A program made the position numbers and the translations under genes. Below the pieces are notes generated by a model that saw only the letters and a program-made list of their open reading frames with translations, searched no databases and was not told the DNA's origin. A stretch of DNA of 64,000 nt from Botryllus schlosseri (lineage: Eukaryota): contig CM119371.1 of the NCBI GenBank assembly GCA_051294905.1, forward strand, positions 21,454,001-21,518,000, written 5' to 3'. Positions within the stretch are counted from its first letter, which is position 1. Each line of letters opens with the position of its first letter. Below are positions 13,486 through 43,582 of this stretch, one piece after another.

Positions 13486-15159
13486 GTTTAAAACATGTTT
13501 TAAACAGTGTTCCAAACATAGGCCTTTTGAAAAAAAGTGTTTTGGTCAAGTTGTAAAATTATGCCATATTTGTGTAAACACTTCCCGAAAAAGAAGTTGT
13601 ATGAGCCTACGGACACTTACCACCCGATTAAGCCGACGTAAGTTGATATGGGATGATTGGAACCCTCAGAATAGTCGGTCCAACAGTTATAGTATAGATA
13701 TTTCGTCAAAGGAGCTATATTTACCCTATATTTTAAATTGCCAATGTCAAATCATTATGACATCACAGTTGAATATTCGTGACGTCATGGCTTGTTAGAA
13801 AAACGGTAAACAACTTGTTTTAAATACGGGCCTTGTTTTAAACATGTTTTTAAAAATTTATTTTTGATTCAATGCAACCCTGGCTGTGGGGGTCCTCTGT
13901 CCGATCTAGAAATTCCAGAATTCCAATATAAGCGCTGGACGTTTATCTAGGTTATTTTTCGTCATCTCATCCGTCATCTCATCTCATCCAATAGTTCTCA
14001 AACTGGGGGCGCGTTTCCTTTTGGGGGCGTGAAAGGATCTGACGAGGACGCTAATCTGCGATGATCTGAAAAAAATGCGCTGAGCGTGAATTAGGCCTAC
14101 CTCCGATTCGTTGTTCTGGCTCTGTGTATAGTGCAAATTTCATATTTGAAAATTCTCTCATCAAAAGTCATAATCTTCCATGCAATCAAACCATTCGTTT
14201 GGGTTGCTGGTATTTTGATTGAAAATTGATATTTGCCAATTAAAGGAGCGAATTTTTTCACTATCATAAAGGGGGGCGTGTCTAAAGAAGTTTGAGAACC
14301 ACTTGTGTTTGCGGTGTCTTTAAAAGAAATCATAGAAGTGGGTCGTGCTACAACTCGGCTGCTACGGAATAAACATGAAGAAAATTGCCCTGTTGTAAAT
14401 GACAACAGTAGTCGACAAACACTGTCAATACCACAAATAACAAGCACTACAACATATCATATCGTAGAATAACCTCAAATAAAATACGAATGTATCATGT
14501 GTATCGGTTGATTTACTGGGTTACTAACCAAACAACTGATGAGGGTTTGATCAACGATATTTAATCATTCACATCAGATGCTATCATACGTATCTGATCA
14601 TGAAAATATAGTTAGGAGTCCATGGATCAATCACAGCATCGTTAGAATGCGTAAACCGAATGGCACAGATTTTTACTCGCCTGCGCCTGCTAAGTAGGGC
14701 TGGACACAATGATTCGAGTACTCGAATCTGAATCGAGTATCAATTTTAATGATTCGAATCGAGTAGTAAAAGGCGATTTTTTCGAGTACTGAAATAATAC
14801 GCTCCTCGCCACTGAAAGTTAATTTATCAACGAGAATTATCGGTACGATACTAATTTTCACTGTTGAAGCCTTGAAGCCTTGATTGGCCGTATAGTAGCA
14901 TGCGAAACATATAGTACACAAAAATGTTGTGAGAAGACCATGACTTCAGAAATGTGCTATTTCCAGTAACGTTCGTAGCTTTGTACTATATGTTCGAGGA
15001 GGGTTGGTTCGATTTGATTGAAATGAGGTCAGTCTCATGTTTGAAATGAGGATAGTCATGTCAGAAATAAGGATAGTCATGTTTGAAATAAGGATAGTCG
15101 CTATATTCACTATAAAGTCAGTTGCAGTACCAGGCACGACTTCCCAGTGGTAACCCAGT

Positions 15160-15890
15160 CCGAACACATCCCAGACATGATGTCCGAACACGCCCCAGAC
15201 ACGATGTCCTAGCGTCAACTCAGTCCTAACACACCCCAGACATGATGTTCAAACACGCGCCAGACACGATATACGAGTGTCAATACAGGCCTGACACGCC
15301 CAAGACACCATGTATGAATGGCAACACAGACCGAACACGCCCAAGACACGATGTCCGAGTGTCAACTCAGATCCGAAAACAACCCAGACACCATGTTTGA
15401 ATGGCCGAACATGCCCCGGACGCGATGTCAGATTGGCAGCACAGGCCGAACACACCCCAGACATGATGTCCAAACACGCCGCAGATACGATGTCCGGGTA
15501 TCAACACAGGCCGAACACACCCAAGACACCATGTCGGAATGGCAACACGGACCGAACACGCCCCAGACACGATGTCCGAGTGTCAACTACGTCCGAACAC
15601 GACCCAGATACCATTTTTGAATGGCCGAACACGCCCCAGACACGATGTCCGATTGCCATCACAGGCCGAACACACCCCAGACATGATGTTCAAACACGCC
15701 TCAGACACGATGTCCGAGTATAAACACAGGCCGAACACGCCCAAGACACCATGTCCGAATGGCAACACAGCCCGAACACGCCTCAGACACCATGTTTGAA
15801 TGGCAATAGCACAGGCCGAACACGCCCCAGACACCATGTCCGAGTATCAACACAGGCCGAACTCGCCCAAGACACCATGTCCGAATGAAT
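15160..15890 (+). repeat. GC-rich minisatellite (left arm), ~21/38-bp units
   Basis: Repeated CCGAACACGCCCCAGACAC motif; source of the spurious ORFs in this interval. Confidence 0.9.
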
Positions 15891-17719: not shown

Positions 17720-19228
17720 AGCAGGTTTTTCTTAAAGAATTTAACGAAACGTCAGAAACAACATATGAAGATGAGTTATTTACAGTGGGCACAGGAACAG
17801 AAATGCACGACTTCAATGTTACGGCATGTGATAAGAATCCTATGGTTATGAAACACTTGAAACGTTGCAGGTTAGCAAATTTTTCCTAAAAATACTTGGG
17901 TACAGGCCCAAAAATGCACGAATTCCATGTTTCAGCAACGGATATGACTCGGAGGATATGAAACACTTCAAACAGTACAGGTTAAAACATACAATAAAAT
18001 CAAGAGCAATGCAACAATGCAGGTTAGCAAGTTCTTACTAAAAATTTAACGAAACAAAAAAAAGGTCAGAAACAACGAATGAAGATAAGTTATTTACAGT
18101 TGGCACAGGAACAGAAATGCACGAATTCAATGTCACGGCATGTGATAAGAATCATATGGTTATGAAACACTTGAAACGTTGCAGGTTAGCAAATTTTTCC
18201 TAACAATTCTTGAGTGCAGGCCCAAAAATGCAGGAATTCAATGTTTCAGCAGCTGATATGACTCTAGATCAGGGGTGGGCAAACTACGGCCCGCGGGCCG
18301 CATGCGGCCCTCCACACCGTCCTGTGCGGCCCGCGAGAGTCTGAAGAAATTTACAAAATATTGATAAAATGCATACTAATAATCGAATTAATGCAGGCAC
18401 TTGATTAAACTTTTCCACGATAATTCTCAGGCAGTGGTGAAAAATTTTTTGCGCTTCGCGCGATCCTCATCTCGTTCATAATTCTTGCTTTGCATTTAGT
18501 CTGAATTTCATATTTGAAAATCTCCCATCCACAGTCTTAACCTTCAATGGCACCAAACTGATGCTAAACATCACAGAAATCCTAAACGAGATTGCTATAA
18601 TTCGGATCACGAGGGTGATGTCAGATCGGCCACCCCAGTTTTAATTATATCAGTGATGTGCTTATTAAAAACGATCTCGTAGATACGATCTCTGTATGCG
18701 TGGAATTAGGGTATTTGTATTTTAGCTAGACATACCAGAAGCGTGTTGGAGGCTGACATGGTTATGATGCAGTCAGCATTATGTGTCCTGGAACTGAACC
18801 AAAAGTGGAATTATTAAATCTATGAGCAGATCGCTTTTCACAGATTTAAATTTCAATCCTGTTCTAAGAATCGGGAAAACCGACTTTTATTTCTATAGTT
18901 TTGACAAATTGGCTATTGAGGTCGACCAGCCTATGAAATCAAGCCACTGTTTCTGACGCGTGTACGATATCATCAAAGCAATGTTTGGTTTGTTTTAAAT
19001 AAGCATATATATGATCTCCATATCCTCACTATATCATCGAATACCAATATGGTGTCTTGGTTTATAATCCCAATTTTACATAGTGCGGCCCGCGAACGGA
19101 TTCAGATGTTGAATGCGGCCCGCGAGCTCAAAAGTTTGCCCACCCCTGCTCTAGATGTTATAAAACACTTCAAACAGTGCAGGTTAAAATATAAAATAAA
19201 ATCAAGAGCAATGCAACAATGTAGGTTG
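17720..19228 (+). repeat. ~310-bp tandem duplication with internal subrepeat, interrupted by hAT 18270-19148
   Basis: 17720-18020 is repeated at 18020-18269 plus 19157-19228. Confidence 0.75.
18270..19148. mobile_element. Charlie/Buster-like non-autonomous hAT
   Basis: CAGGGGTGGGCAAAC / GTTTGCCCACCCCTG; TSD CTCTAGAT. Confidence 0.95.
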
Positions 19229-20460
19229 AGGTGTGTTCGGCCTGTGCTGCCAATCGGACATCGTGTCTGGGGCATGTTCGGCCATTCAAACATGGTGTCT
19301 GGGTTGTGTTCGGATCTGAGTTGACACTCGGACATCGTGTCTGGGGTGCGTTCGGTCTGTGTTGCCATTCAGACATGGTGTCTTGGGCGTGTTAGGCCTG
19401 TATTAACACTCGGACATCGTGTCTGGCGCGTGTTCGGACATCGTGCCTGGGGAGTGTTCAGACATCATGTCTGGGGGGTGTTCGGTCTGTGTTGCCATTC
19501 AGACATGGTGTCTTGGGCGTGTTCGGCCTGTGTTGACACTCGGACACTGTGTCTGAGGCGTGTTCGGACACCATGTCTGGGGTGCGTTCGGCCTGTGTTG
19601 CCAATTAGACATCGTGTGTGGAGCGTGTTCGGTCTGTGTTGTCATTCAGACATTATGTCTGGGGCGTGTCGGCCTGTGTTGACACTCGGACATCGTGTCT
19701 GCGCCGAGTTCAGACATCATGTCTGGGGCGTGTTCGGCCTGTGCTATAGCCATTCAAACATGGTGTCTGAGGCGTGTTCGGTCTGTGTTGCCATTCGGAC
19801 ATGGTGTTTTGGGCGTGTTCGGCCTGTGTTTATACTCGGACATCGTGTCTGAGGCGTGTTTGAACATCATGTCTGGGGTGTGTTCGGCCTGTGATGGCAA
19901 TCGGACATCGTGTCTGGGGCGTGTTCGGCCATTCAAAAATGGTGTCTGGGTCGTGTTCGGACGTAGTTGACACTCGGACATCGTGTCTGGGGCATGCTCG
20001 GTCTGTGTTGCCATTCAGACATGGTGTCTTGGGCGTGTTAGGCCTGTATTGACACTCGGACATCGTGTCAGGCGCGTGTTTGGACATCATGTCAGGGGTG
20101 TGTCCGGCCTGTGCTGCCAATCGGACATCGTGTCTGGGGCGTGTTTGGACATCATGTCTGGGGTGTGTTCGGCCTGTGCTGCCAATCGGACATAGTCTGT
20201 GGGGTGTGTTCCGCCATTCAAACATGGTGTCTGGGTTGTGTCCGGACTGAGTTGACACTCGGATATCGTGTCTGGGGTGTGTTCGGCCTGTGTTGCCATT
20301 TGGACATGGTGTCTTGGGCGTGTTAGGCCTGTGTTGATACCCGGACATCATGTCTGGGGCGTGTTTGGACATCATGTCTGGGGTATGTTAAGACTGTGTT
20401 GACGCTAGGACATCGTGTCTGGGATGTGTTCGGACACCATGTCTGGGATGTGTTCGGACT
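19229..20460 (-). repeat. GC-rich minisatellite (right arm), inverted
   Basis: Repeated GTGTCTGGGGCGTGTTCGG motif. Confidence 0.9.
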
Positions 20461-20477
20461 TGGTTACCACTGGGAAG

Positions 20478-22095
20478 CAGTGTTGGGATGACTCGAGTCA
20501 TGACTTGACTCGAGTCAGACTCGAGTCACCTTTTTCGTATGACTTGACTTGACTCGAGTCACTTTGCTAAAATGACTTTACTTGACTTGACTCGGGGTAT
20601 CAGAAATGTGGATTGACTCGTGACTCGGAGCAAAATTCACGAGTCAATTTCAAGTCATCAAGTAATCGGTATCGATAAAAATCACTGTATCTTGCATATG
20701 GTCGGATTGTTCGCGAAACGCCAGCGTAACCCGTGAGAGTGAGCAATCATTGAATGATTCAATGATTTAATGAGCCTCCATTGTTCTCTCACAAATAAAT
20801 TAACCGCAAACGAGGTGATCGAAGCTTACAGCTTACGTTGTCGTAAACTAATTTAGTAAAGTAATTTAATAGCAAAATGTCTATTTCTGTTCTTGCCTTA
20901 ATCAAACCTTTTTTTTATATTGAATTCGAATATAGTTTATAGCCGATAGTTCTCAACCATTGGCACGGGCTGAAATTGCATCATATCAATTTGTAAGTGA
21001 GTAATGTATTGCATCTTATCAATTCGTTTCTCTATTCTGCTGGGAACTATAAACTGAGGCTATGCAATTACTTACGTAGTTTAACAGATCTACATATATG
21101 TGAGCGATACAGCGTGTATATTAGGGCTCTTCAAAAATGACTTTTTTCTCTAATCGTATTGGCTACTTGACAAAATTGTTAGGTTACCTAATTTAAGCCT
21201 ACACACAAAATTTGGTTCAATTCCAGCCAGTAACCGCTTTGCTACAAGTGAAGAAAGTTTCTATTTATTATATAAAAATAAATAATAAAAAAATTTGAAA
21301 ATTTTCTGTACACCCCATGAAAGTGTTTGGCTGTCTATAGAAACAATGCTCACCAAATTTGGTTCAATTCCAACCAGTGGAAGCGGAGTTATGGCCGTCG
21401 AAAAATTTGGATTTGAATAAAATAGTATTTACGGTGACCGATTCTTTGTTTATTTATTAAAGTTGTGCTAACCGTAAATACTATTTTATTCAAATCCAAA
21501 TTTTTCGACGGCAATAACTCCGTTTCCACTGGGAGGAATTGAACCAAATTTGGTGAGCATCATTTCTATAGACGGCCTAATACTTTTATGGGGTGAACAG
21601 AAAATTTTCAAATTTTTTATTATTTATTTTTATATAATAAATAGAAACTTTCTTCTCCTTAGCAAAGCGGTTACTGGCTGGAATTGAACCAAATTTTGTG
21701 TGTAGGCTTAAATTAGGTAACCTAACAATTTTATCAAGTAGCCAGTACGATTTGAGAAAAAAAGTCATTTTTGAAGAGCCCTAGTGTATATTTAACTCTA
21801 CATTTATTCATCGATTCACAATCAATGACCACTCAATCTGTATTTCAGACAGCTAGCAAAATGCAATGACCTAATCATGCCCCACTTTGAAAAGGCAACT
21901 TGACTTGAATTGTGACTTGACTCGTGACTTGACTTGACTTGACTCGACTTGACTCGAGTCACCTCCAAAAATCGGGTGACTTGACTTGACTCGAGTCACC
22001 TTCGAAAATCAATTGACTTGACTTGACTCGAGTCAAAATATGCAGTGACTCGAAATGACTCGTGACTCGAAGGTAGTGACTTGATCCCAACACTG
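20478..22095. mobile_element. hAT element with (TGACT)n subterminal arrays
   Basis: CAGTGTTGGGAT / ATCCCAACACTG; TSD CTGGGAAG. Confidence 0.95.
21122..21783. mobile_element. Second full copy of the TAGGGCTCTTC foldback MITE
   Basis: Highly similar to 11146-11806; TSD GTGTATAT. Confidence 0.95.
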
Positions 22096-25274: not shown

Positions 25275-27079
25275 CAGTGCTTTTCAACCTGTGTGACGGT
25301 TCGCACTTGTGCGAATGAAAAAAATTGCAGTGCGAATGACGAAGGTGGTGCGAACGGTGCGAATGAAAATCCCGGATGAGTGCGAATGAAAATCGCGAAT
25401 GATAATTGTTAATTTTTCTGACCTGAAATATTTCAAATAGACCTAATAGGAAATTCAAGGGCAGTGTAACTTTTGTTGTTGCGACGCAATTGTAAAAAGT
25501 ACAGTATCATCCCGTCCGAGCCTGCGACAGGCTGAAAAAATGACGTCGAATTGACTTCCTGCTTTCCTTCGCTAAACAATCTTTCGTAATAACTGTTCGA
25601 TTAGTGCGAGACACGAGGATGGTAGTAAATAACATCATTGAAGACTCGCATTTGCAAGTTTTTGTAACGCAGATTTTTACCCCTTCAAGGGTTATGAAGG
25701 TATGGACCGCAAAGGGTATAATTTTTGGTGGACACGGTGCCAGAGCTATCTGTTAATGTGTATGTGATATTTGTTAAATTCATTGCAAAAAACCTGCGAT
25801 ATAGTTTTTACAAATCTAAGGTCACGGTGTTTGGTACTGTAGCCAGAAAATATGGCTTTATCATGATAAGATTTGTCCGACTGGTAAACATGGTCGATGA
25901 TGACCGTTGGGATGAACTAGTGTAGGGACTAGAGATGTGCAACGAGCGAGTTCAGGTCTGTGACACTCAGCCAGCCAGCCAGCCAGCCCCTTTTGCGTCG
26001 GGTTACATGAAGACGTAAAGTTCTGGTCAACAAACCTCTGATGTAAATGCGGTGCTAAAACATCGACAAAACCTTGGTCGAAAATGACCTATGCTGGATG
26101 GCCAAACCATTCGATATGGATATTCTCCGTTGTCGGCAGTGAATAGTCCCGTTCTTGCAATCTGAGTAGACTGCAGTAATACAACTGCGACACGTAGAGG
26201 AATTTAATTCACCCTAATTTGAGATCGCGTGCGTCATACATATTTTGTAGAGCTGTGTTGGATAGAATTGTGGTGTGCGCGTTCTGTATGTCATACATGT
26301 CCCATTGTCCGTAAAATCTTAACATATACTACTGTAATATTAAAAATGAATTCTTTTTCATGGGTGAGGCTCTGGTCGTGAGATGCGACAAAAACTCAGA
26401 TTTTGGTGTTAGTCCAAAAAGCTGCATTGACGTTATTAAACTGTTATGAATTCTCAAGTTAGATTAAGCTCAAGAGCAGAACACAGAGTATTGTGAGTTC
26501 AGTTGCTCTTCCCACATACTCGCGAGACAGAAAATGGGAATTCGAAAAAAAAGTTGGAGCAACTTATCATAAGGTAGCGAGCTCTAATATGCCTACTCTC
26601 CTTCATTGTTTGGACCTTATTTTCCAAAACATAATGCAAAAGCCTCAACACAAACAAGTGGGTTTTTCACCCTTTCGACATACTGGAGCCTAATAGAACT
26701 TTTTGTCAGCGCTCAAAATCGATTTCTTCCAGCAAGCATTTTTTAATTGTGAAAAAATACGTTGTATTTTGGATAGGAGTGCAGAACAGATTCTAAGACC
26801 TTGCCATCCAAGCACTAATAGACGTTCTTGTACAAAACCCAACAACGTGTTTGGACTGAAAGGGTTTTAGTGAAATTTTTGAAATCGAAACGAGCGAAAA
26901 TAGTAGCCTTTTTAATGAGACACTTGATAGCTTAAGACACACCAATTTGTTGCAAATCCGATCAAATAAATGTTGTATTTTCATATTCTTTCTGTATAAC
27001 AATTTTCGGTTTGTTTGTGCAAATGAAATTTATTTTACGAAAAAGTGCGAATGAAGCTTAAAAAGGTTGAAAAGCACTG
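25275..27079. mobile_element. hAT element with TGCGAATGA subterminal repeats; its right TSD is displaced by the 16-kb insertion
   Basis: Perfect TIR CAGTGCTTTTCAACC / GGTTGAAAAGCACTG; TSD ACCCAGTC at 25267-25274 and 43157-43164. Confidence 0.9.
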
Positions 27080-27233
27080 ACAGTATTATAGCCTGTCTTT
27101 ATACCCCCTCCAATCAGCGTCGAGTATTTGATCACGTGACATCTGTTAGCCAATCAGAATGCAGAAGGATGTGGGTTTGGTTCCAATACGAGAGAGGTTT
27201 TGGTTGAGCGAGAGATAGCATAGCTCCAGTCCA

Positions 27234-27680
27234 GTAACGCTGAGATATTTATTACGTCATTGCGTAAGTTGATTACCTATGATTGCGTATTGCAGCATGT
27301 TCATGATTGCGTCACATGCGTAGTTGATTACTTTATTTATTACGAGAGCGGCTTTGCTTAGTTCCACGTGTAACGCTGAGATATTTATTACGTCATTGAG
27401 TAAGTTGATTACCTATGATTGCGTATTGCAGCATGTTCATGATCACGTCATATGCGATTACTTTAGTTATTACGAGAGCGGCTTTGCTTAGTTCCAGTAA
27501 TGCTCAGATATGATTACGTTATGATTGCGTCTAGTTCCAGTCCAATAACACTGAGAAACACGTTAATACGATTGTGTAGTTGAAGCATGTTCATGATTAC
27601 GTCGTATGTGTAGTTGATTACTTTAGTAACACCGAGATATGATTACGTTAATATTGCGTTGATTGCCTTTGCAGTTGAAG
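27234..27680 (+). repeat. Subterminal tandem repeats (~130-bp x2 plus decayed units) rich in bZIP-like motifs; mirrored at ~42550-42997
   Basis: GTAACGCTGAGATATTTATTACGTCA... at 27234 and 27369; TTACGTCA, TTGCGTAA and TCACGTCA motifs. Confidence 0.85.
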
Positions 27681-27749
27681 CAAGTGCAAGGTAATATATA
27701 ACGTATAATATTTATTACATGATTATTCGCTGTAGGCTGTAGATTGAAT

Positions 27750-28037
27750 ATGTCAAAGATTACTGCTAATGATATATACGTCATAATGGATCGAATTGAC
27801 CTGATGAACTGGTATAGGTTTGCACGTGAAAAACTTGAGCTATCTGACAATGAAATTGCCGAATGTCAATACATGGATTGCTATAACTTAACTGAGCAAC
27901 GATATCAAATGATACAGTTATGGATTCGTAAAAATGGTCGTTACGCTACGATGAACAAACTTGAAGAATTAGTTCACAGCTGTCAGATACCTTCGAATAG
28001 CAATTCAAATGCTCTGTTGAAAGACATAACGTACTAA
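27750..28037 (+). CDS. Stand-alone death-domain protein (95 aa), left arm
   Basis: WYRFAREKLELSDNEI...LTEQRYQMIQLWIRKNGRYATMNKL matches the DD pattern W..(L/F)AR.L.LS..EI...L.EQ.YQML..W....G..AT...L. A likely 5'UTR intron lies at ~27691-27742. Confidence 0.85.
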   Translation: MSKITANDIYVIMDRIDLMNWYRFAREKLELSDNEIAECQYMDCYNLTEQRYQMIQLWIRKNGRYATMNKLEELVHSCQIPSNSNSNALLKDITY

Positions 28038-30890
28038 GAGGAGAATTGCGCGGACTAGTGAATAATGAAGATGCTCTCAGAAGACTTCAATATCGATGAA
28101 AATGGCTAATTTCACGTAAAATCATAAGATATTCTAATCATTGAAATCATGTAGATTATAACAGTGAACGTCTTTTGTACAAACTAATTCTTCAACAAGA
28201 TAATCAACAATTTAACGAAAACTCAAATAGATATTCACAAAGCAACAATATTAAAAAAAAGATGTTCACCGTTATAAGCCACAATGATGTCAATGAATAT
28301 AGAAAAAATATTAATAATATTAATACTCCTCAGTTAGAATGAAATATTTTAAAAGATTCAAATCATGTTTTGATTCTTATAATAACGTAAGCTAATTATT
28401 TTCATCAACATCACAAGATAATTGATAAATTAACTAAATAATAAATAAGATATTCACAAAGCAGCAATATTAATAAAATAATCAGTGGTAACAACACATG
28501 GAAATGGCTAATTTCACGCAATATTATAAGATATTCATATTACTAGGTAATTTTTTGATATTATTACGTTGATTTGTGTGTCAATATTAGTGTAAAATGA
28601 AAGCATTTTGTAGTGCATACGCTAAGGTACTGCGACACTATCCATTAACCAAGAAGGTATTCAGTTAATTCCCTATAGAGCACAGCTGTTGTCACAATGA
28701 AATGTTGACTATCGAATGAAGTTTATTATTGTGTATTGATAGGATACACCTTCATGAGGTTGCAAGGTATTTGAATTTTGTGTAGCGCTAATTCTAATTA
28801 AACTTGGAGCTTGTTGTACAAAAGATGTTCACCGTTATAAGCTACAATGATTTCAATGAATAATGAAAGAAATAATAATAATCATTAATATTCCAAAGTT
28901 GGAACCAAAGTAATAATACTTGAAAAATGAAATATTTTAAACATATTTAAATCCAGTAAATTGTACTTCTACTCCAAGTAGCAATTCGCCTACTGACTGG
29001 AATTTAATCGAATTTGGTATGCCGCAATCATAGAGAAAAAGTAGATTTTCTCAAATATTTGATGTAGGTATTTATTGTTAGCTGCTGTTATAGGGATATT
29101 TCGCAATAGCAGTGCATTCGTATCACCGACTGTTTGCGGTCAAAGGAGATCGCTATAGACCAATAAATTACTTATAGCGGAAATGATGTTGAGCTGTACC
29201 AACGTAGTTAACTATCAAGTTCATCGTTATACACAATGATTTATCATTGATTAATTATCCACTTCGATTCGAGAGTTCAATTGCAAATTTTTAATCATTT
29301 AGTACCATCTTTCATCAAATTCTATAAGTCTTGCATTATATTGAAATCCCAGAACAACTAGAAATATGTATTAAAAATCCAGTGACGTAAACATTTTGAT
29401 AGCACTGTGTAAATGACATATCGCAATATTATCACCCTACTCGCCTCACATATGTCTCACTAAACAATGCATTCGCTATTTAGTATTAATATTGTTCCAC
29501 GCATTAGCCTGCAAATGTAGTATAATATAATGAGATAAGATTGTTTGATATGCAGGTCGCGCATGAAGCAGATCTCTCCACCCTGTACTATAGTAATGTG
29601 TTAGATGTGTGCTCAAATGTTTATTGTGAATAAGACCAGTTACGCTCCAGCTACCGTGTTGGTTAACCCGTTGTGAAATTTCTGCGGCCATATCTTCACC
29701 GTCACACTTATACTCTACGCGAACGCTATATTGTAGCTTAATTTCTTTATGTAGTACGTGCAAACATATGATGTGTGTCTCTCAATTTCCTTTCAAAATC
29801 CATATGATACAACAGCTGGCCTCTACAGGGAATTAACTGAATACATTCTTGACCAATGGATCGTGTCGCAGTACCTTACCCTATGCACTACAAAATGCTA
29901 TCATTTTACACAGTAATAATGAGACACAAACCAAAGTAATGATATCAGAAAATTGCCTAATAATATGAATATCTTAAGATTTTTGCGTGAAATTAGCCAT
30001 TTTCTAGTGTTGTTATTGTTTCACTAGCACTGATTTTTCTAATAATATTGTTGCTTTGTGAACATCTTATTAATTTTTTAGTTAAAGTATCAATTATCTT
30101 GTGTTGTTGATGAAAATAATTAGCTTGTACAAAAGACGTTCACTATTAAAATATACACGATTTCAATGATTATTAAAAAATAAGCTGATGCAAGTTTCCA
30201 GAATGCTGATGCTAACTATGCTGTTGGAGCCTTTCCAAATAGCAATACGCAGTACAGTTATCGCAGATGGATGCAAAATAGTCCTAATTCTCAACAATTT
30301 GAATTGTCTCGAAATCACACTTATTGCGATATCAAATCCCCGCATTTAGTTGTATTTAGGGCTATTGCACAAGCTATCTCCAATATGCTGCAATATAGAG
30401 AGGTTCAAACTTGTCTAGGGTATTCACTTCCCGTCAACTAGCTTTTAAAGACACATTGATAAGCGCGCCTATTTAATTACCTAATTTTCTTGACTGTCTT
30501 CGAATATTTCATCGACTATCATAAGGAACATTCGCTCATCGCTCATCATTCGCTCATCATATATATATTACATTGACTTTAATATCACTATAACGGAACT
30601 ATAACGAAATATGATGTGTATGAGAGCTGTCGGTGTAAATCAAGAAGTAAGCATATAATAGGTGTATGTAGCAGGTTTTCACCATAATGTAGGGTGCTTA
30701 TCAACAATTTTTGTATATCGAATGTTTGTAGCTCTAGGAAGATATTCGTATTGGAGACTACGATTATATCTTCAAGAATATCAACATAACCAGCATATCA
30801 ACCAGAACTTTTAGGTTCGTTTTCCGATAGAAACCTCGGAAATATCTCATCATAAGCAGCGTATTACGCTTACTCTTGGCTGTTCCATCA

Positions 30891-31057
30891 AGCTCCGTAC
30901 ACCTTGATCTTTTCGGATACATTGGCATTGCGGAATATGCAACGTTCAGCATTGGATGAACATTCCTAACAAAGGCATAGGTGTCCCCAGGGAACCAAGC
31001 TAACTTCGCTTCTATTCTTTTACATTGTTTGCAAAGCACGGTATTTTGTAATTCCAT
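30891..31057 (-). pseudogene. IAP-type RING-HC finger pseudogene, left arm
   Basis: Mirror of 39174-39340. Confidence 0.7.
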
Positions 31058-31694
31058 GAGACTTCAGTGGTTCTAGAATACAAAATTATTGAGAGTCGAA
31101 TAAACTGTCAATTAACTAAGCATAAAGTATATGATATTCAAAAATATTTAAAGGTTACGTCGTTGAACAACCCCGATATGATCATACAGCGAAAGTATAG
31201 CCCCAAATAGCGCTAATATCTCCCAAGCATAAACAATAACGTGGTCGAAATGTACGTTTTATTGCAAATTTATCTCTAAACAGAATGAGCTGTAGCTTAT
31301 CACATTCGAATTACTGAGTGAAATTGACATAGAACTATTAGGTCAAGCCGAAACATCTTCACTTCAGTTATCATTCCCATGGGGCTACTAGTTATAGCAG
31401 AGGCGGGCAAACTGCGATTCGCGCCTGTAGCACTTTATTGATTTCACGTGCGTTTCGCTATTTTGTTAAAGAAGTTCAACCTGATTATATGTTAATGCAT
31501 CTATAGCGTATTAGAAATATGCGAATGGTGGCCCTATACAGCCTTCGAAATTAGCAATTGAACTCTCGAATTCAACCTGATCATCAATCAATGACAAATC
31601 ATTGTTTTCAACGCTATTTTTTGTGGTTCACTGACTCACAACCTTTAGTGACCCGCAGAGCACTTACGTTAGTTGAACTTTGGCCTCAGTTGGA

Positions 31695-32287
31695 CTGTAG
31701 ATTACTAACCTACGGATAGATACGCAAGTCCCGTCGTTACGCTCCGACAAGCAGTTACACTTGTTGCTGAGCAATCCAAAAGAAGCATAATTGGTGGAGT
31801 TATAGCTTGCGTCCCGAGGGCTGAAATGTAATGAAACTGGTCTTAATCGAGAGCTACTGCCTCACTGATTCCGAAAATACAAATTCAAATCGTGCCGGGG
31901 ATATGGAACCACCTCAAAACATCTCTCAAAATCTGAAAATCGACATAGTTCCAACAATGGCACCACCGCAACAGGATGAACATAACAATGGCCAATTTCG
32001 TCAAGCGATTGTTCAGAGCAATTTCGATTTTCAGACTTTGAGGGATGGTTTGACATGGTTCCATTTCCTGACAAGATTTTAATTTGTATTCTCAGAATCA
32101 GTGCGACAGTAGCTCTCGATTAAGAGACCAGTTTCAATAAATTTCACCTCTCAGGTCGCAAGTTGTAATACCACCAATTATGGTGCTTTTAGATTGCTGA
32201 GCAATAAGTGTAACTGCTTGCCGGAGCGTAACGACGGGACTTGCGTATCTATCCGTAGGTTAGTAATCTATAGTTTTACCACCCCTG
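31695..32287. mobile_element. MITE with ~200-bp TIRs inside the left arm (mirrored at ~37943-38536)
   Basis: 31695-31895 is inverted against 32068-32272; hAT-like ACCACCCCTG right end. Confidence 0.75.
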
Positions 32288-32451
32288 CTCTAAACCATAA
32301 CCATAACAACTTGAGTAAGTACTGTCACTAGGCAAACCCTAGCAGAGTTATGCTCAAATTATATCAAATATTGCATGGAATATGGCAAATGAACACGCCA
32401 AGTATTATCAAGTGAAGGAAAACGAACGCCTAATTCCCTCTAGATACATAT

Positions 32452-34818
32452 TTATTCGGAAAATCTCCCATTACAGGGTGAGTACAGTTGATTTCTCAAG
32501 GTCTTCCTATCTTCCCCACTTAAGCGCGGTAAGACTAGTTTGACTTCGCGGCATTCAGGATTATATCTCACGAAGCTCTGAATGGAATTCACGTATTTCA
32601 CGTCGACTATCGTTCTGTTGCTATCACTGAGGTCGATTGCCTTTAGCTGTTCATTGAATAATAGGCGATTTAGATCAATTTAAAAAATACAGAAACGAAC
32701 TGCATCGCTACATCGGGATCTACTATTGAGCAGAAAGATCTTACTGTAGCGCATCGCTTTCCCGTCTCTTCGCTCAGATTCCTGATTTGCATGGAAAGCA
32801 TCTTGCAATTACTCAGATTAAATTCTTCCACACGGGAATTGCACAGGACTTTAGTTAGTGTTTTGTAGCAGGATGAAATGCCAGGATTTCTACTTAAATC
32901 CAGCGAGTGCAGCTAAAACATGGTGTAATGTTCAAATATTTTACGAGACTACAAATGACTCGACACCTGTAATAGATTAGTCATAATATTATTTATCAAC
33001 AGTTGAGCAATTTTCGCGATGTCTGCTCCTAATAGCAAAACTGATGCAACACCGAAGACAATAATGAAGCTCGAAAGGTTATTGAAGAAACCATCTAAAC
33101 TAGATTTAAAATGAATGAACGATTGAAAAAACCTCTTGCTTAGAAGCAGTGATAGTATTTATTTTCAGACGTGATCAGAAACACTTTATTGATGATAAAA
33201 GTTCTATCGATCGATGAAATGTCATGCTTGAGTATGACTGAAACTCACATAAGCATTAGACTGTGATTGATTATTTCAGTTACAAAACATAACGGATCTA
33301 GTTCAAATGATCACCTCATGAATTCCGAGACCTTTATTTAATAAGATTAGTGAGTCTTCGTCCAATTCGCAAGCTGAAAGTCGAACGTTTTTCGTGTTAT
33401 GCTTTCTTACAAAGCATCCAACTTCTTTCAAACCTGTCGGTTCCATATCCGTATTATAACTCAGATCAAGGTTTTCGACCTACAATTACAGTAATTTATT
33501 TCAAAATGACACACAAAACTATAGAAACGAGTGAGTACCTCGATAGAAGCAAAACTTTCAAAAGCGCGAATTTCCTCTGGTGTAAGGTCACACCCCTTCA
33601 TGATAAGAGTAACCGCTTTGTCTTTACAAAGTAAGGCAGGCAGCGCGGTCATACACTCTTCATCCAGCTGATTGTAGCTGATGTCAAGATATTGGAGCTG
33701 AACAAATATAGGAAACTGTCAATTTACGATCAGCATTGATCAGATATAAAACATTTCAAACTGATAACAGAAAAAAAATGTTGATTAGCCACTCACGTCA
33801 TAATATACGCGAAATGTGCTAAGAGTAAACTAGAATTTCCTCTATCCATCCATCTCTGTACAATCGCTCACACAGAATGTGATCATTAACGACTATACCC
33901 AGCAATAATCGCACATACCTTACTGTTTTTGAGCTGTAGAGCAACGAAATCTTTTGACTGCAAGTGCGAGTTCACAAGTGACAAATAGGTTAGATCGTTC
34001 GAAATAATAGTCGCGAGTTGCGTAAAGTTAATGTTTTCCCCGTAGCTGAGATTGAGGTTTCGTAATTTCACCTATGGGAACGAGGTATTAGGAAACCTCA
34101 CTTCGAGAGGTTCTATACTAGATTAGCGCCTAGCTTTTCCCATCATCAATACCTGATGCCGCCTGATAAGTTGATCCAAAATGATTAGAAAATCTTCGGA
34201 TCCATCACTTTCTTCCAGATTGAGCTCCGTCAAACCACACTCCTTCATCAACTCGCATATTACTGGGAGGAGGTTTTCAATGTTGTCGTGTGCTGTAACG
34301 CTGAGTTTTCTTATTTCGACCTGAACGAGCGCAAAACTTCACACATAAAATGCTAAATGAGCTATGAACAGTTTAACACTGATCAACTTTAGCTATAGCC
34401 TATCTAATAAGGCTATTGAGACTGATTCCTATACAAGTAGCAATTGAGCATTGTTCGCTACGTTACCTTCAATTCTCGCCTTAACACATCAGTAATAGGG
34501 AACAACGCGATTACGATAAAAGTTTTTTTAAAGTCGTATCTGAATACTTATATTGAACGTGAATTTATAATGATCAGTGACTACGAGTGAATGTGTGAAG
34601 GCGTTTACCACAAATTCAAATCCACGAATTTTATCCAGTAGAATCTTTACGAGGTTTTCATTGAGATCGCATTGGCGAAATTCTAACTCATACACGCGAC
34701 ATTGCTGAATAAGACCATTCGCGATATTATGTATATCCAATTCAGTCGTAGTTTGGTCATAGAGCCCATAAGGAATATTCACGTCATCATGATCCGTAAG
34801 TACTAATTGATGGTACAT
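32452..34818 (-). CDS. 7-exon RI/NLR-type leucine-rich repeat protein, left arm
   Basis: Mirror of 35412-37778 with a few substitutions. Confidence 0.8.
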
Positions 34819-35098
34819 CCTCTTTTCAGCTTAAGGATGTAAACTAAAAAATGTTGTATGCCGCCCTGATGAGTTTAATTATAATATACTTATAATGGTA
34901 CAGTGATTTTTCAATAACGAAACTCTTTTACAGCATGAGCAGAATAATTTCATAATAAACATAAAATACCTGCTGTCGATGATTTGTACTAATTTGCGGC
35001 GCGTTCAATTAACTCATGCGGCTCAAAAATATAGTAAGCATGGCGATTGGTATTCGTTGAGTTGAATAAACATTAAAAACAATATATTTCCGCGCCCT

Positions 35099-35131
35099 CC
35101 TAAACCTAATTCCTCCTAACCCTACAACCCA
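35099..35131. other. 33-bp non-palindromic loop at the palindrome centre, CCCTAA-like
   Basis: CCGCGCCCT[CCTAAACCTAATTCCTCCTAACCCTACAACCCA]AGGGCGCGG. Confidence 0.9.
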
Positions 35132-35411
35132 AGGGCGCGGAAATATATTGTTTTTAATGTTTATTCAACTCAACGAATACCAATCGCCATGCTTACTATA
35201 TTTTTGAGCCGCATGAGGTAATTGAACGCGCCGCAAATTAGTACAAATCATCGACAGCAGGTATTTTATGTTTATTATGAAATTATTCTGCTCATGCTGT
35301 AAAAGAGTTTCGTTATTGAAAAATCACTGTACCATTATAAGTATATTATAATTAAACTCATCAGGGAGGCATACAACATTTTTTAGTTTACATCCTTAAG
35401 CTGAAAAGAGG

Positions 35412-37778
35412 ATGTACCATCAATTAGTACTTACGGATCATGATGACGTGAATATTCCTTATGGGCTCTATCACCAAACTACGACTGAATTGGATATACA
35501 TAATATCGCGAATGGTCTTATTCAGCAATGTCGCGTGTATGAGTTAGAATTTCGCCAATGCGATCTCAATGAAAACCTCGTAAAGATTCTACTGGATAAA
35601 ATTCGTGGATTTGAATTTGTGGTAAACGCCTTCACACATTCACTCGTAGTCACTGATCATTATAAATTCACGTTCAATATAAGTATTCAGATACGACTTT
35701 AAAAAAACTTTTATCGTAATCGCGTTGTTCCCTATTACTGATGTGTTAAGGCGAGAATTGAAGGTAACGTAGCGAACAATGCTCAATTGCTACTTGTATA
35801 GGAATCAGTCTCAATAGCCTTATTAGATAGGCTATAGCTAAAGTTGATCAGTGTTAAACTGTTCATAGCTCATTTAGCATTTTATGTGTGAAGTTTTGCG
35901 CTCGTTCAGGTCGAAATAAGAAAACTCAGCGTTACAGCACACGACAACATTGAAAACCTCCTCCCAGTAATATGCGAGTTGATGAAGGAGTGTGGTTCGA
36001 CGGAGCTCAATCTGGAAGAAAGTGATGGATCCGAAGATTTTCTAATCATTTTGGATCAACTTATCAGGCGGCATCAGGTATTGATGATGGGAAAAGCTAG
36101 GCGCTAATCTAGTATAGAACCTCTCGAAGTGAGATTTCCTAATACCTCGTTCCCATAGGTGAAATTACGAAACCTCAATCTCAGCTACGGGGAAAACATT
36201 AACTTTACGCAACTCGCGACTATTATTTCGAACGATCTAACCTATTTGTCACTTGTGAACTCGCACTTGCAGTCAAAAGATTTCGTTGCTCTACAGCTCA
36301 AAAACAGTAAGGTATGTGCGATTATTGCTGGGTATAGTCGTTAATGATCACATTCTGTGTGAGCGATTGTACAGAGATGGATGGATAGAGGAAATTCTAG
36401 TTTACTCTTAGCACATTTCGCGTATATTATGACGTGAGTGGCTAATCAACATTTTTTTTCTGTTATCAGTTTGAAATGTTTTATATCTGATCAATGCTGA
36501 TCGTAAATTGACAGTTTCCTATATTTGTTCAGCTCCAATATCTTGACATCAGCTACAATCAGCTGGATGAAGAGTGTATGACCGCGCTGCCTGCCTTACT
36601 TTGTAAAGACAAAGCGGTTACTCTTATCATGAAGGGGTGTGACCTTACACCAGAGGAAATTCGCGCTTTTGAAAGTTTTGCTTCTATCGAGGTACTCACT
36701 CGTTTCTATAGTTTTGTGTGTCATTTTGAAATAAATTACTGTAATTGTAGGTCGAAAACCTTGATCTGAGTTATAATACGGATATGGAACCGACAGGTTT
36801 GAAAGAAGTTGGATGCTTTGTAAGAAAGCATAACACGAAAAACGTTCGACTTTCAGCTTGCGAATTGGACGAAGACTCACTAATCGTATTAAATAAAGGT
36901 CTCGGAATTCATGAGGTGATCATTTGAACTAGATCCGTTATGTTTTGTAACTGAAATAATCAATCACAGTCTAATGCTTATGTGAGTTTCAGTCATACTC
37001 AAGCATGACATTTCATCGATCGATAGAACTTTTATCATCAATAAAGTGTTTCTGATCACGTCTGAAAATAAATACTATCACTGCTTCTAAGCAAGAGGTT
37101 TTTTCAATCGTTCATTCATTTTAAATCTAGTTTAGATGGTTTCTTCAATAACCTTTCGAGCTTCATTATTGTCTTCGGTGTTGCATCAGTTTTGCTATTA
37201 GGAGCAGACATCGCGAAAATTGCTCAACTGTTGATAAATAATATTATGACTAATCTATTACAGGTGTCGAGTCATTTGTAGTCTCGTAAAATATTTGAAC
37301 ATTACACCATGTTTTAGCTGCACTCGCTGGATTTAAGTAGAAATCCTGGCATTTCATCCTGCTACAAAACACTAACTAAAGTCCTGTGCAATTCCCGTGT
37401 GGAAGAATTTAATCTGAGTAATTGCAAGATGCTTTCCATGCAAATCAGGAATCTGAGCGAAGAGACGGGAAAGCGATGCGCTACAGTAAGATCTTTCTGC
37501 TCAATAGTAGATCCCGATGTAGCGATGCAGTTCGTTTCTGTATTTTTTAAATTGATCTAAATCGCCTATTATTCAATGAACAGCTAAAGGCAATCGACCT
37601 CAGTGATAGCAACAGAACGATAGTCGACGTGAAATACGTGAATTCCATTCAGAGCTTCGTGAGATATAATCCTGAATGCCGCGAAGTCAAACTAGTCTTA
37701 CCGCGCTTAAGTGGGGAAGATAGGAAGACCTTGAGAAATCAACTGTACTCACCCTGTAATGGGAGATTTTCCGAATAA
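35412..37778 (+). CDS. 7-exon RI/NLR-type leucine-rich repeat protein (~405 aa), right arm
   Basis: Phase-0 GT-AG exons 35412-35621, 35910-36077, 36159-36311, 36533-36691, 36751-36915, 37318-37485 and 37584-37778. Motifs include LRNLNLSYG, LQYLDISYNQL, VENLDLSYN, LHSLDLSRNP and LKAIDLSDS. Internal exons are 51-56 codons. Confidence 0.85.
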
Positions 37779-39173
37779 ATATGTATCTAGAGGGAATTAG
37801 GCGTTCGTTTTCCTTCACTTGATAATACTTGGCGTGTTCATTTGCCATATTCCATGCAATATTTGATATAATTTGAGCATAACTCTGCTAGGGTTTGCCT
37901 AGTGACAGTACTTACTCAAGTTGTTATGGTTATGGTTTAGAGCAGGGGTGGTAAAACTATAGATTACCAACCTACGGATAGATACGCAAGTCCCGTCGTT
38001 ACGCTCCGGCAAGCAGTTACACTTATTGCTCAGCAATCTAAAAGCACCATAATTGGTGGTATTACAACTTGCGACCTGAGAGGTGAAATTTATTGAAACT
38101 GGTCTCTTAATCGAGAGCTACTGTCGCACTGATTCTGAGAATACAAATTAAAATCTTGTCAGGGAAATGGAACCATGTCAAACCATCCCTCAAAGTCTGA
38201 AAATCGAAATTGCTCTGAACAATCGCTTGACGAAATTGGCCATTGTTATGTTCATCCTGTTGCGGTGGTGCCATTGTTGGAACTATGTCGATTTTCAGAT
38301 TTTGAGAGATGTTTTGAGGTGGTTCCATATCCCCGGCACGATTTGAATTTGTATTTTCGGAATCAGTGAGGCAGTAGCTCTCGATTAAGACCAGTTTCAT
38401 TACATTTCAGCCCTCGGGACGCAAGCTATAACTCCACCAATTATGCTTCTTTTGGATTGCTCAGCAACAAGTGTAACTGCTTGTCGGAGCGTAACGACGG
38501 GACTTGCGTATCTATCCGTAGGTTAGTAATCTACAGTCCAACTGAGGCCAAAGTTCAACTAACGTAAGTGCTCTGCGGGTCACTAAAGGTTGTGAGTCAG
38601 TGAACCACAAAAAATAGCGTTGAAAACAATGATTTGTCATTGATTGATGATCAGGTTGAATTCGAGAGTTCAATTGCTAATTTCGAAGGCTGTATAGGGC
38701 CACCATTCGCATATTTCTAATACGCTATAGATGCATTAACATATAATCAGGTTGAACTTCTTTAACAAAATAGCGAAACGCACGTGAAATCAATAAAGTG
38801 CTACAGGCGCGAATCGCAGTTTGCCCGCCTCTGCTATAACTAGTAGCCTCATGGGAATGATAACTGAAGTGAAGATGTTTCGGCTTGACCTAATAGTTCT
38901 ATGTCAATTTCACTCAGTAATTCGAATGTGATAAGCTACAGCTCATTCTGTTTAGAGATAAATTTGCAATAAAACGTACATTTCGACCACGTTATTGTTT
39001 ATGCTTGGGAGATATTAGCGCTATTTGGGGCTATACTTTCGCTGTATGATCATATCGGGGTTGTTCAACGACGTAACCTTTAAATATTTTTGAATATCAT
39101 ATACTTTATGCTTAGTTAATTGACAGTTTATTCGACTCTCAATAATTTAGTATTCTAGAACCACTGAAGTCTC

Positions 39174-39342
39174 ATGGAATTACAAAATACCGTGCTTTGC
39201 AAACAATGTAAAAGAATAGAAGCGAAGTTAGCTTGGTTCCCTGGGGACACCTATGCCTTTGTTAGGAATGTTCATCCAATGCTGAACGTTGCATATTCCG
39301 CAATGCCAATGTATCCGAAAAGATCAAGGTGTACGGAGCTTG
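39174..39342 (+). pseudogene. IAP-type RING-HC finger pseudogene, right arm
   Basis: MELQNTVLCKQCKRIEAKLAWFP, then a 1-nt frameshift to GHLCLC*ECSSNAERCIFRNANVSEKIKVYGA*. This is a C-terminal IAP-like RING with a frameshift, a TAG stop and loss of the last Cys. Confidence 0.75.
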
Positions 39343-42193
39343 ATGGAACAGCCAAGAGTAAGCGTAATACGCTGCTTATGATGAGATATTTCCGAGGTTT
39401 CTATCGGAAAACGAACCTAAAAGTTCTGGTTGATATGCTGGTTATGTTGATATTCTTGAAGATATAATCGTAGTCTCCAATACGAATATCTTCCTAGAGC
39501 TACAAACATTCGATATACAAAAATTGTTGATAAGCACCCTACATTATGGTGAAAACCTGCTACATACACCTATTATATGCTTACTTCTTGATTTACACCG
39601 ACAGCTCTCATACACATCATATTTCGTTATAGTTCCGTTATAGTGATATTAAAGTCAATGTAATATATATATGATGAGCGAATGATGAGCGATGAGCGAA
39701 TGTTCCTTATGATAGTCGATGAAATATTCGAAGACAGTCAAGAAAATTAGGTAATTAAATAGGCGCGCTTATCAATGTGTCTTTAAAAGCTAGTTGACGG
39801 GAAGTGAATACCCTAGACAAGTTTGAACCTCTCTATATTGCAGCATATTGGAGATAGCTTGTGCAATAGCCCTAAATACAACTAAATGCGGGGATTTGAT
39901 ATCGCAATAAGTGTGATTTCGAGACAATTCAAATTGTTGAGAATTAGGACTATTTTGCATCCATCTGCGATAACTGTACTGCGTATTGCTATTTGGAAAG
40001 GCTCCAACAGCATAGTTAGCATCAGCATTCTGGAAACTTGCATCAGCTTATTTTTTAATAATCATTTAAATCGTGTATATTTTAATAGTGAACGTCTTTT
40101 GTACAAGCTAATTATTTTCATCAACAACACAAGATAATTGATACTTTAACTAAAAAATTAATAAGATATTAACAAAGCAACAATATTATTAGAAAAATCA
40201 GTGCTAGTGAAACAATAACAACACTAGAAAATGACTAATTTCACGCAAAAATCTTAAGATATTCATATTATTAGGCAATTTTCTGATATCATTACTTTGG
40301 TTTGTGTCTCATTATTACTGTGTAAAATGATAGCATTTTGTAGTGCATAGGGTAAGGTACTGCGACACGATCCATTGGTCAAGAATGTATTCAGTTAATT
40401 CCCTGTAGAGGCCAGCTGTTGTATCATATGGATTTTGAAAGGAAATTGAGAGACACACATCATATGTTTGCACGTACTACATAAAGAAATTAAGCTACAA
40501 TATAGCGTTCGCGTAGAGTATAAGTGTGACGGTGAAGATATGGCCGCAGAAATTTCACAACGGGTTAACCAACACGGTAGCTGGAGCGTAACTGGTCTTA
40601 TTCACAATAAACATTTGAGCACACATCTAACACATTACTATAGTACAGGGTGGAGAGATCTGCTTCATGCGCGACCTGCATATCAAACAATCTTATCTCA
40701 TTATATTATACTACATTTGCAGGCTAATGCGTGGAACAATATTAATACTAAATAGCGAATGCATTGTTTAGTGAGACATATGTGAGGCGAGTAGGGTAAT
40801 AATATTGCGATATGTCATTTACACAGTGCTATCAAAATGTTTACGTCACTGGATTTTTAATACATATTTCTAGTTGTTCTGGGATTTCAATATAATGCAA
40901 GACTTATAGAATTTGATGAAAGATGGTACTAAATGATTAAAAATTTGCAATTGAACTCTCGAATCGAAGTGGATAATTAATCAATGATAAATCATTGTGT
41001 ATAACGATGAACTTGATAGTTAACTACGTTGGTACAGCTCAACATCATTTCCGCTATAAGTAATTTATTGGTCTATAGCGATCTCCTTTGACCGCAAACA
41101 GTCGGTGATACGAATGCACTGCTATTGCGAAATATCCCTATAACAGCAGCTAACAATAAATACCTACATCAAATATTTGAGAAAATCTACTTTTTCTCTA
41201 TGATTGCGGCATACCAAATTCGATTAAATTCCAGTCAGTAGGCGAATTGCTACTTGGAGTAGAAGTACAATTTACTGGATTTAAATATGTTTAAAATATT
41301 TCATTTTTCAAGTATTATTACTTTGGTTCCAACTTTGGAATATTAATGATTATTATTATTTCTTTCATTATTCATTGAAATCATTGTAGCTTATAACGGT
41401 GAACATCTTTTGTACAACAAGCTCCAAGTTTAATTAGAATTAGCGCTACACAAAATTCAAATACCTTGCAACCTCATGAAGGTGTATCCTATCAATACAC
41501 AATAATAAACTTCATTCGATAGTCAACATTTCATTGTGACAACAGCTGTGCTCTATAGGGAATTAACTGAATACCTTCTTGGTTAATGGATAGTGTCGCA
41601 GTACCTTAGCGTATGCACTACAAAATGCTTTCATTTTACACTAATATTGACACACAAATCAACGTAATAATATCAAAAAATTACCTAGTAATATGAATAT
41701 CTTATAATATTGCGTGAAATTAGCCATTTCCATGTGTTGTTACCACTGATTATTTTATTAATATTGCTGCTTTGTGAATATCTTATTTATTATTTAGTTA
41801 ATTTATCAATTATCTTGTGATGTTGATGAAAATAATTAGCTTACGTTATTATAAGAATCAAAACATGATTTGAATCTTTTAAAATATTTCATTCTAACTG
41901 AGGAGTATTAATATTATTAATATTTTTTCTATATTCATTGACATCATTGTGGCTTATAACGGTGAACATCTTTTTTTTAATATTGTTGCTTTGTGAATAT
42001 CTATTTGAGTTTTCGTTAAATTGTTGATTATCTTGTTGAAGAATTAGTTTGTACAAAAGACGTTCACTGTTATAATCTACATGATTTCAATGATTAGAAT
42101 ATCTTATGATTTTACGTGAAATTAGCCATTTTCATCGATATTGAAGTCTTCTGAGAGCATCTTCATTATTCACTAGTCCGCGCAATTCTCCTC

Positions 42194-42481
42194 TTAGTAC
42201 GTTATGTCTTTCAACAGAGCATTTGAATTGCTATTCGAAGGTATCTGACAGCTGTGAACTAATTCTTCAAGTTTGTTCATCGTAGCGTAACGACCATTTT
42301 TACGAATCCATAACTGTATCATTTGATATCGTTGCTCAGTTAAGTTATAGCAATCCATGTATTGACATTCGGCAATTTCATTGTCAGATAGCTCAAGTTT
42401 TTCACGTGCAAACCTATACCAGTTCATCAGGTCAATTCGATTCATTATGACGTATATATCATTAGCAGTAATCTTTGACAT
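42194..42481 (-). CDS. Stand-alone death-domain protein, right arm
   Basis: Mirror of 27750-28037 with one D/N difference. Confidence 0.85.
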   Translation of the reverse strand: MSKITANDIYVIMNRIDLMNWYRFAREKLELSDNEIAECQYMDCYNLTEQRYQMIQLWIRKNGRYATMNKLEELVHSCQIPSNSNSNALLKDITY

Positions 42482-43582
42482 ATTCAATCTACAGCCTACA
42501 GCGAATAATCATGTAATAAATATTATACGTTATATATTACCTTGCACTTGCTTCAACTGCAAAGGCAATCAACGCAATATTAACGTAATCATATCTCGGT
42601 GTTACTAAAGTAATCAACTACACATACGACGTAATCATGAACATGCTTCAACTACACAATCGTATTAACGTATTTCTCAGTGTTATTGGACTGGAACTAG
42701 ACGCAATCATAACGTAATCATATCTGAGCATTACTGGAACTAAGCAAAGCCGCTCTCGTAATAACTAAAGTAATCGCATATGACGTGATCATGAACATGC
42801 TGCAATACGCAATCATAGGTAATCAACTTACTCAATGACGTAATAAATATCTCAGCGTTACACGTGGAACTAAGCAAAGCCGCTCTCGTAATAAATAAAG
42901 TAATCAACTACGCATGTGACGCAATCATGAACATGCTGCAATACGCAATCATAGGTAATCAACTTACGCAATGACGTAATAAATATCTCAGCGTTACTGG
43001 ACTGGAACTATGCTATCTCTCGCTCAACCAAAACCTCTCTCGTATTGGAACCAAACCCACATCCTTCTGCATTCTGATTGGCTAACAGATGTCACGTGAT
43101 CAAATACTCGACGCTGATTGGAGGGGGTATAAAGACAGGCTATACTACTACTACTGACCCAGTCAATCCGAAATCGAGTAACTGTACGAGAAGGTCGCAC
43201 CAAACCAAATCGCAATCTTCAGTCACGAATCATTAACAGGTCATGTTTTGTCATCATGAACTAGAAATGTCACGTATTAGCTGATCTTCTACCGCATGGC
43301 AGCTTGTAAAAGTGATCTGATAGAGAAGTTTGTTGACATTTCAGTGATTTTTATTGCAGTTTGAGCGTGAACTGCAAGCTGTCACATCTAAAGAATAGAT
43401 ATGGCACTTCAATATATCGTTGAATACTTGGTGACGTCATGGCTTTAAAAAACATAAATAGCATAAAAAACATATTTTAAATTAGGGCCCTTGTTTTAAA
43501 TGAAACCATAACTATATGGATGCAGACGTAGCCTATACGCCGGAATACTAGCGATACATGTTAGCCGTATCACTCCTTAAGG

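Follow-up and report, generated by a model that had tools for sequence, protein, structure and literature searches.

A death-domain gene of Polinton elements in Botryllus schlosseri, likely captured from the prodomain of a host caspase

Results

A death-domain-only gene in both arms of a palindromic element

The window, a stretch of 64,000 nucleotides of the Botryllus schlosseri genome (GCA_051294905.1, contig CM119371.1, positions 21,454,001 to 21,518,000), contains an open reading frame of 95 amino acids that runs from ATG to TAA at 27750-28037 on the + strand and encodes a death domain (DD) only. A mirror copy, different at one residue, lies in the right arm of the same element at 42194-42481 on the - strand. 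Both copies are intact and face inward just past subterminal repeats of ~136 bp, as a preliminary description made from the sequence alone had stated. Its domain assignment was upheld by a Pfam search, in which Death (PF00531) matched residues 8-78 of the frame and positions 3-73 of the 86-position profile (E 2.6e-11, 43.9 bits against a cut-off of 22.6). The same search found no second domain beside Death in the 95 residues.

The best PDB sequence matches of the frame were the death domains of TNFR1, RIPK1 and FADD. An AlphaFold2 model built from an 11-row alignment (pLDDT 80) predicted a death-fold helical bundle that matched the FADD DD (TM 0.68/0.73, rmsd 1.5 A; Foldseek probability 1.00, with an E-value of only ~3e-3) and also the TNFR1 DD. 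The model has five helical elements followed by a low-confidence tail (residues 81-95), and the sixth helix of canonical death domains is missing from it. The prodomains of the host donor genes described below likewise stop at profile position 68-76 of 86, so the absence of the helix seems to be characteristic of the family and not a sign of damage.

A TATA-like box at 27695-27701 (+), 55 bp ahead of the ATG, is a candidate promoter. The subterminal repeats (27234-27522, +) form a candidate enhancer region rich in CRE/ATF-like cores, of which 27082-27749 holds 14 and crude shuffles 1.5. The first 80 codons of the frame are identical to the DD gene of an autonomous Polinton (L042), and the final stretch common to the autonomous element lies at 28038-28095 (+). 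Because similarity stops at ~28095, the window element lacks both the polyA signal and the 3′ UTR native to the gene; AATAAA next occurs at 28440 and 28472.

The gene sits in a 16-kb palindromic, non-autonomous Polinton/Maverick derivative (27082-43152) with AGT ends and a 6-bp target-site duplication (TSD). The left duplication (27076-27081) matches the right one (43153-43158), which follows the (ACT)n end, and the left end is one AGT shorter than in sister copies. Two 8-kb arms, 99.76% identical, flank an unpaired centre of 33 nt (35099-35131), and the doubling of the DD gene is a by-product of this mirror structure. Terminal sequence at 27082-27328 (+) is homologous to the ~240-bp terminal inverted repeat (TIR) of autonomous family-C Polintons (~91% over 247 bp; L041, L043 and L045). 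Genes for PolB, integrase, ATPase, capsid and protease are absent from 27001-43200, which holds only short remnants of two Polinton ORFs. The window element is a helper-dependent palindromic satellite of a Polinton, and it likely kept the DD gene since this gene adjoins the end sequence.

Recent independent insertions, near-identical to the window element, were found at C14:8.07 Mb (~99.5% identity) and at C11:14.11 Mb, the latter with a different TSD, a 0.9-kb insertion and 99.97-99.99% identity in reversed orientation. As the match holds in that orientation, differences specific to one arm have been copied along. In a self-symmetry test, all 12 satellites tested, from 20 fetched loci, were near-perfect palindromes of varied content. 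The unit of end sequence plus DD gene is internal and outward-facing in satellites L062-L065, L068-L071, L073 and L076-L078, where it stands beside pieces resembling Bcl-2 or IAP; Polinton ends have thus been shuffled as modules.

Each arm of the window element also contains a 580-bp internal inverted repeat (31694-32274 and 37956-38537; its own arms 82% identical), part of which matches an abundant genomic repeat. The second cargo is a multi-exon LRR-like gene of the ribonuclease-inhibitor type at 32455-34818 (-), with its mirror at ~35412-37775 (+). Four RNA reads skip its 98-nt GT-AG intron (32647-32744), and one exon has 149 genomic matches, mostly as mirror pairs. No NACHT was seen beside this gene in the satellite, and it may be a second host-derived immune cargo. 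A fusion of the DD and LRR frames across the satellite was rejected: the two lie on different strands within an arm and 7.4 kb apart across arms, the DD stop codon is conserved, and no reads join them. Elsewhere in the window, inverted GC-rich minisatellite arrays of 24, 41 and 65 bp, ~4 kb apart (15135-15888 and 19227-20482), probably belong to another repeat element and are unrelated to the DD gene.

The gene in autonomous Polinton families

When the DD protein was compared with the genome, at least 145 matches were found, 150 of 161 candidates having been scored; among these 150, at least 87 matched at 84% identity or more. Of the 12 family-C capsid loci, 11 had a DD match within 14 kb, and of the 14 family-A capsid loci, 12 had one within 20 kb. 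The occurrence of the gene in autonomous Polintons, a question that the preliminary description had raised, is thus answered in the affirmative.

One autonomous family-C copy, C1:20441540-20459362 (17.8 kb, covered by L041 and L042), has open frames for an integrase and an ATPase, both recognized by Pfam, and for PolB-, capsid- and protease-like proteins, which were named from motifs, size and gene order; a weak jelly-roll Pfam match was obtained in family A only. Its accessory genes encode a Bcl-2 protein (Pfam 7.6e-20), a UBC E2 (1.9e-48), a BIR-only protein (7e-11) and the same DD. The Bcl-2, ubiquitin E2 and BIR-only genes are located at L041:779-2254 and L042:6044-7018. This copy holds a single DD gene, which lies beyond the 236-bp TIR at ~525 bp from one end, and in the four autonomous family-C copies measured the true TIR is 236-254 bp. 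The earlier placement of the gene in both arms, inside the terminal repeat, is therefore correct as to position in the window, but it follows from the 8-kb + 8-kb palindrome and not from the terminal repeat of the autonomous element. Longer repeats were seen in two further cases: a family-A copy on C22 (L032/L033) has a TIR of 837 bp in which the whole DD gene is duplicated, and at L052 the terminal repeat reaches 30 codons into the DD.

The DD is 54-56% identical in family A and 71-74% in family B. Three autonomous families (A, B and C) share a fixed gene order of DD, orf183, BIR, orf410, orf134 and PolB; in family B an additional ORF separates DD from orf183, and there are further BIR genes. 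In the most numerous sister family, B′ (sister of B, capsid ~69% identical), no DD was found in any of the eight sampled copies, seven of which reach orf183, and the gene is therefore dispensable for Polinton spread. The adjoining orf183 is conserved in all four families examined. A PolB tree gave ((A,C),(B,B′)) by midpoint rooting only, and the DD order B,(A,C) is consistent with it. On this midpoint-rooted tree, a single gain of the DD gene followed by loss in B′ would be the simplest reading.

Families A and B carry a metacaspase-like Peptidase_C14 gene after the capsid module (E 9.8e-13; L040:8501-9271 and L037:1986-2726), indicating that the cargo is not purely anti-death. Free DDs can seed DD filaments, and with such a protease at hand the Polinton DD could act as a nucleator or activator that seeds DD-caspase assembly, leading to lysis or to signalling useful to the element. 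We regard this as quite improbable, since family C, the parent of the window satellite, gave no match to the metacaspase-like gene but has Bcl-2 and BIR, and since ~100 DD copies, some of them transcribed, are tolerated in the genome.

Selection on the DD gene

Pairwise dN/dS was estimated by the Nei-Gojobori method over 80 codons. The values were 0.14 for the window copy against family B (p 1e-9), 0.34-0.38 against family A (p ~1e-3) and 0.23 against a divergent family-C copy, L051 (p 0.006), and 0.09-0.12 for family A against family B. Rows for L076 and L077 were set aside on account of a 6-nt deletion that misaligns the last codons, and state counts were made on 76 codons. In the 10 autonomous copies, 14 states were synonymous and 6 non-synonymous (p 2.5e-6 against neutral), compared with 13 and 23 in 24 satellite copies, a weaker constraint (Fisher p 0.025); the amino-acid changes in satellites are mostly private. 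Internal stops occur in 4 of the 111 Pfam DD matches of the genome. In three families the gene encodes a single death-fold domain of 82-95 aa with no effector domain. Comparison of these sequences thus shows constraint that is clear in the autonomous lineages, largely driven by one long branch, and weaker in satellites.

Transcription

Two raw single-cell RNA runs from one study, X23 and X24, were sampled at 22.2 million read pairs each (3-4% of each run), and reads were placed on L042 at 85% likeness and on the window arm at 95%. On L042 the DD coding bin had sense/antisense depths of 3.1/0 in X23 and 2.46/0.28 in X24, and the bin at the 3′ end of the gene 9.28/0 and 4.28/0. For comparison, depth reached 12 on BIR in X23, stayed below 1 in PolB bins, and was 78.5 (X23) and 16.2 (X24) on orf183, the most highly transcribed gene in this half of the family-C Polinton. 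Strand assignment was consistent for genes on both strands of L042. The DD bin of the window arm gave 3.91/0 (X23) and 1.46/0 (X24). Contig runs X1 and X3, guessed to be RNA, were left out of the expression evidence, their cover being even and including PolB. The DD gene family is transcribed in sense at a low level in these two runs, with reads that are not assignable to a single locus.

At window position 27963, all seven reads carry the letter of another subfamily. Ten reads depart from the window sequence at 28095 and enter a motif found, among the fetched loci, only in L071-L078, so that some satellite copies may be the expressed ones. These observations bear on whether the window copy itself has a function. 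It could be a neutral hitch-hiker beside a cis-acting end, with function confined to autonomous elements, which is compatible with a decoy role for the gene family as a whole. We consider this somewhat the better guess for the window copy: satellite copies gather mostly private changes, this satellite has lost its native 3′ UTR, the reads with diagnostic letters belong to other subfamilies, and many satellites with the same ends hold only broken DD pieces (e.g. L079). Set against this, some satellites keep an intact, rearranged DD unit, and the ten reads above run into satellite sequence.

Taken over all copies, the frame could instead be a non-functional captured fragment, as its low expression and its absence from the large family B′ might suggest. 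This is already largely refuted, and we give it very little credence: dN/dS is 0.09-0.38 across saturating synonymous divergence, in three families the gene has a start (ATG) and a stop of its own at comparable positions, and the reads are strand-specific with a 3′ peak.

A host caspase as the nearest relative

Among host sequences, the closest is the N-terminal part of a DD-caspase (L021:5840-7501), which belongs to a cluster of five genes at C8:2.35-2.40 Mb (L021-L026). Each of the five is an uninterrupted frame of 521-569 aa, and four were confirmed to contain Death and Peptidase_C14. The Polinton DD is 60% identical to the L021 DD in protein and 78% in DNA over 166 nt, the similarity being limited to the DD. 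The donor caspase retains the His/Cys dyad (SHG, QFCCG). In the cluster paralogue L024 the dyad motifs are lost (SYG, QFGRG), and that gene may be a decoy of the host's own.

When 22 DDs were placed in a tree, the six Polinton rows formed one clade (89/92, not among the starred nodes), sister to the host DD-caspase L021:5840-7501 (98/99), and the two together were nested among ascidian DD-caspases. An earlier tree of 15 rows did not resolve whether the Polinton DDs are monophyletic (AU p 0.33). When 1.84 billion representatives of all lengths were searched with HMMER, the top single-domain N-terminal matches were Styela clava DD-caspases and Logan proteins. Among relatives of 45-167 aa, the homologue search returned one, P0001, of 83 aa and the same family, and ESM Atlas gave generic Death clusters only. 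On these sequence comparisons, the DD-caspase family is older than the B. schlosseri genome, and the nesting in the tree suggests that capture went from host to element. The Polinton DD is likely a captured caspase prodomain, probably captured once.

The preliminary description had named as its own refuting case a captured terminal exon, never expressed and not conserved among copies. A terminal exon was rejected as the source: the nearest host DD is N-terminal, the first part of an uninterrupted DD-caspase frame of 554 aa. Conservation in three autonomous families, purifying selection, sense RNA reads of the gene family and the sister placement to a host DD-caspase argue together for a captured prodomain and not a dead exon.

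The partner of the protein might lie elsewhere, since DD surfaces can be promiscuous. The DD-only protein could be a decoy or modulator of another DD platform (TNFR/FADD/RIP-like, MyD88/Imd-like NF-kB, or DD-NACHT receptors) and not of DD-caspases. The divergence of the Polinton DD from its donor would allow this, the PDB matches listed above name components of such platforms, DD-NACHT proteins are present among the DD profile matches, and the satellite also bears an LRR-like gene. We nevertheless think it unlikely, as the PDB matches reflect what has been solved and the DD-caspase is by far the nearest host protein, with 97 bits against at most 68 for the next cellular DD.

Discussion

A possible decoy of DD-caspase signalling

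The gene belongs among the accessory genes of a Polinton/Maverick clade of animals. In our analysis its product is probably a decoy against DD-caspase signalling. As a protease-less copy of a caspase prodomain, it would compete for the DD-DD contacts that recruit host DD-caspases; with their docking sites occupied, host cell death or inflammation would be reduced for as long as the element is active, and the DD would act alongside the Bcl-2 and BIR proteins in keeping the cell alive. As the donor caspase retains its catalytic dyad, its prodomain alone would have the classic form of a decoy. In this scheme we infer that the protein is made, that it binds through homotypic DD-DD contacts and that it inhibits instead of activating. 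The earlier suggestion of an element-encoded modulator of death-receptor or innate signalling is thus upheld in part: a modulator of death signalling is well supported, the gene being conserved, under selection, transcribed and placed beside Bcl-2 and BIR genes, but its nearest host DD is the prodomain of a caspase and not a death receptor, and the copy in the window travels as the passenger of a satellite.

A wider reading, which we put forward tentatively and hold to be rather doubtful, is that the clade is equipped with a full toolkit of host-derived genes for the death pathway (a DD decoy, Bcl-2, BIR-only IAPs, E2 and metacaspase-like protease) and that palindromic satellites amplified the DD gene to ~100 copies, some of them transcribed, which now tune the host DD-caspase pathway. 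If true, this would be the first viral decoy of the DD class and a way for satellites of viruses to rewire innate immunity in animals. Such a toolkit would fit an infectious virus that has to counter the suicide of its host cells, and the field has yet to settle whether the Polintons/Mavericks of animals still exist as viruses. Selection for a caspase-prodomain decoy beside Bcl-2 and IAP would be the pattern of a replicating virus under host apoptotic attack. It would also single out the ascidian DD-caspase cluster, which has been little studied, as a likely effector of antiviral defence, and the DD-only gene with its donor caspase makes a small, directly testable inhibitor-target hypothesis.

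Comparison with known systems

AGT-repeat ends, a 6-bp TSD, autonomous elements of ~17 kb and core genes with flanking accessory regions are described for Polintons/Mavericks (Barreat and Katzourakis 2021, PMC8097293), and Starrett et al. (2021, PMC8502044) noted homologues of Bcl2 and IAP in adintoviruses. The elements studied here share with them the ends, the TSD and the accessory death genes; the window element differs from those on record in being a fully palindromic satellite with no core genes. The word 'death' does not occur in PMC8097293, and no death-domain gene was found in the accessible text and supplement of PMC8502044. Our literature search for a DD-only gene in Polintons, a Polinton DD or palindromic satellites found nothing. 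Long-TIR non-autonomous Polintons may already be described in work by Kapitonov and Jurka from 2006. A BFVD fold search gave no meaningful match to a viral DD structure, and of the 33 pattern matches from an IMG/VR scan with the DD alignment none was confirmed.

Host apoptosis genes are also carried by mobile elements of another class. Burro giant LTR retrotransposons, treated by Arkhipova and Yushenova (2019, PMC6431247), bear domains of the BIR and Bcl-2 types; like the Polinton clade they are mobile elements with host apoptosis- or ubiquitin-related domains, but, as far as the sections seen of that account go, they are retroelements with the domains embedded in a polyprotein and have no DD. 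A DD-caspase is mentioned for Hydra in bioRxiv 10.1101/2019.12.13.875351, and only CARD and DED prodomains are named in what was seen of a paper on Ciona caspases (PMC10923776). The DD-caspases of invertebrates (Hydra, Styela clava) belong to the same DD subfamily as the Polinton DD, which differs from them in having neither linker nor whole caspase domain and in stopping 5-17 residues past the DD.

The Polinton DD resembles the known death-fold-only decoys in being an isolated homotypic domain from a caspase or adaptor with no effector part, and it shares a virus-like carrier with the viral cases. It differs in its DD class, its DD-caspase donor, its five predicted helices and its carrier, an endogenous Polinton with satellites, present in ~100 copies; its inhibitory action would be the inferred part of the likeness. 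The human CARD-only proteins COP, INCA and ICEBERG come from duplication of the CASP1 prodomain, and other such decoys are the pyrin-only proteins, viral FLIPs, the poxvirus PYD-only protein M013 and a ranavirus vCARD. To our knowledge all of these belong to the DED, PYD and CARD classes, and the Polinton gene would extend death-fold-only decoys to the DD class. Bcl-2 and IAP in adintoviruses are known already; new here are a DD-caspase prodomain as donor, the presence of the gene in autonomous families, its selection and its expression.
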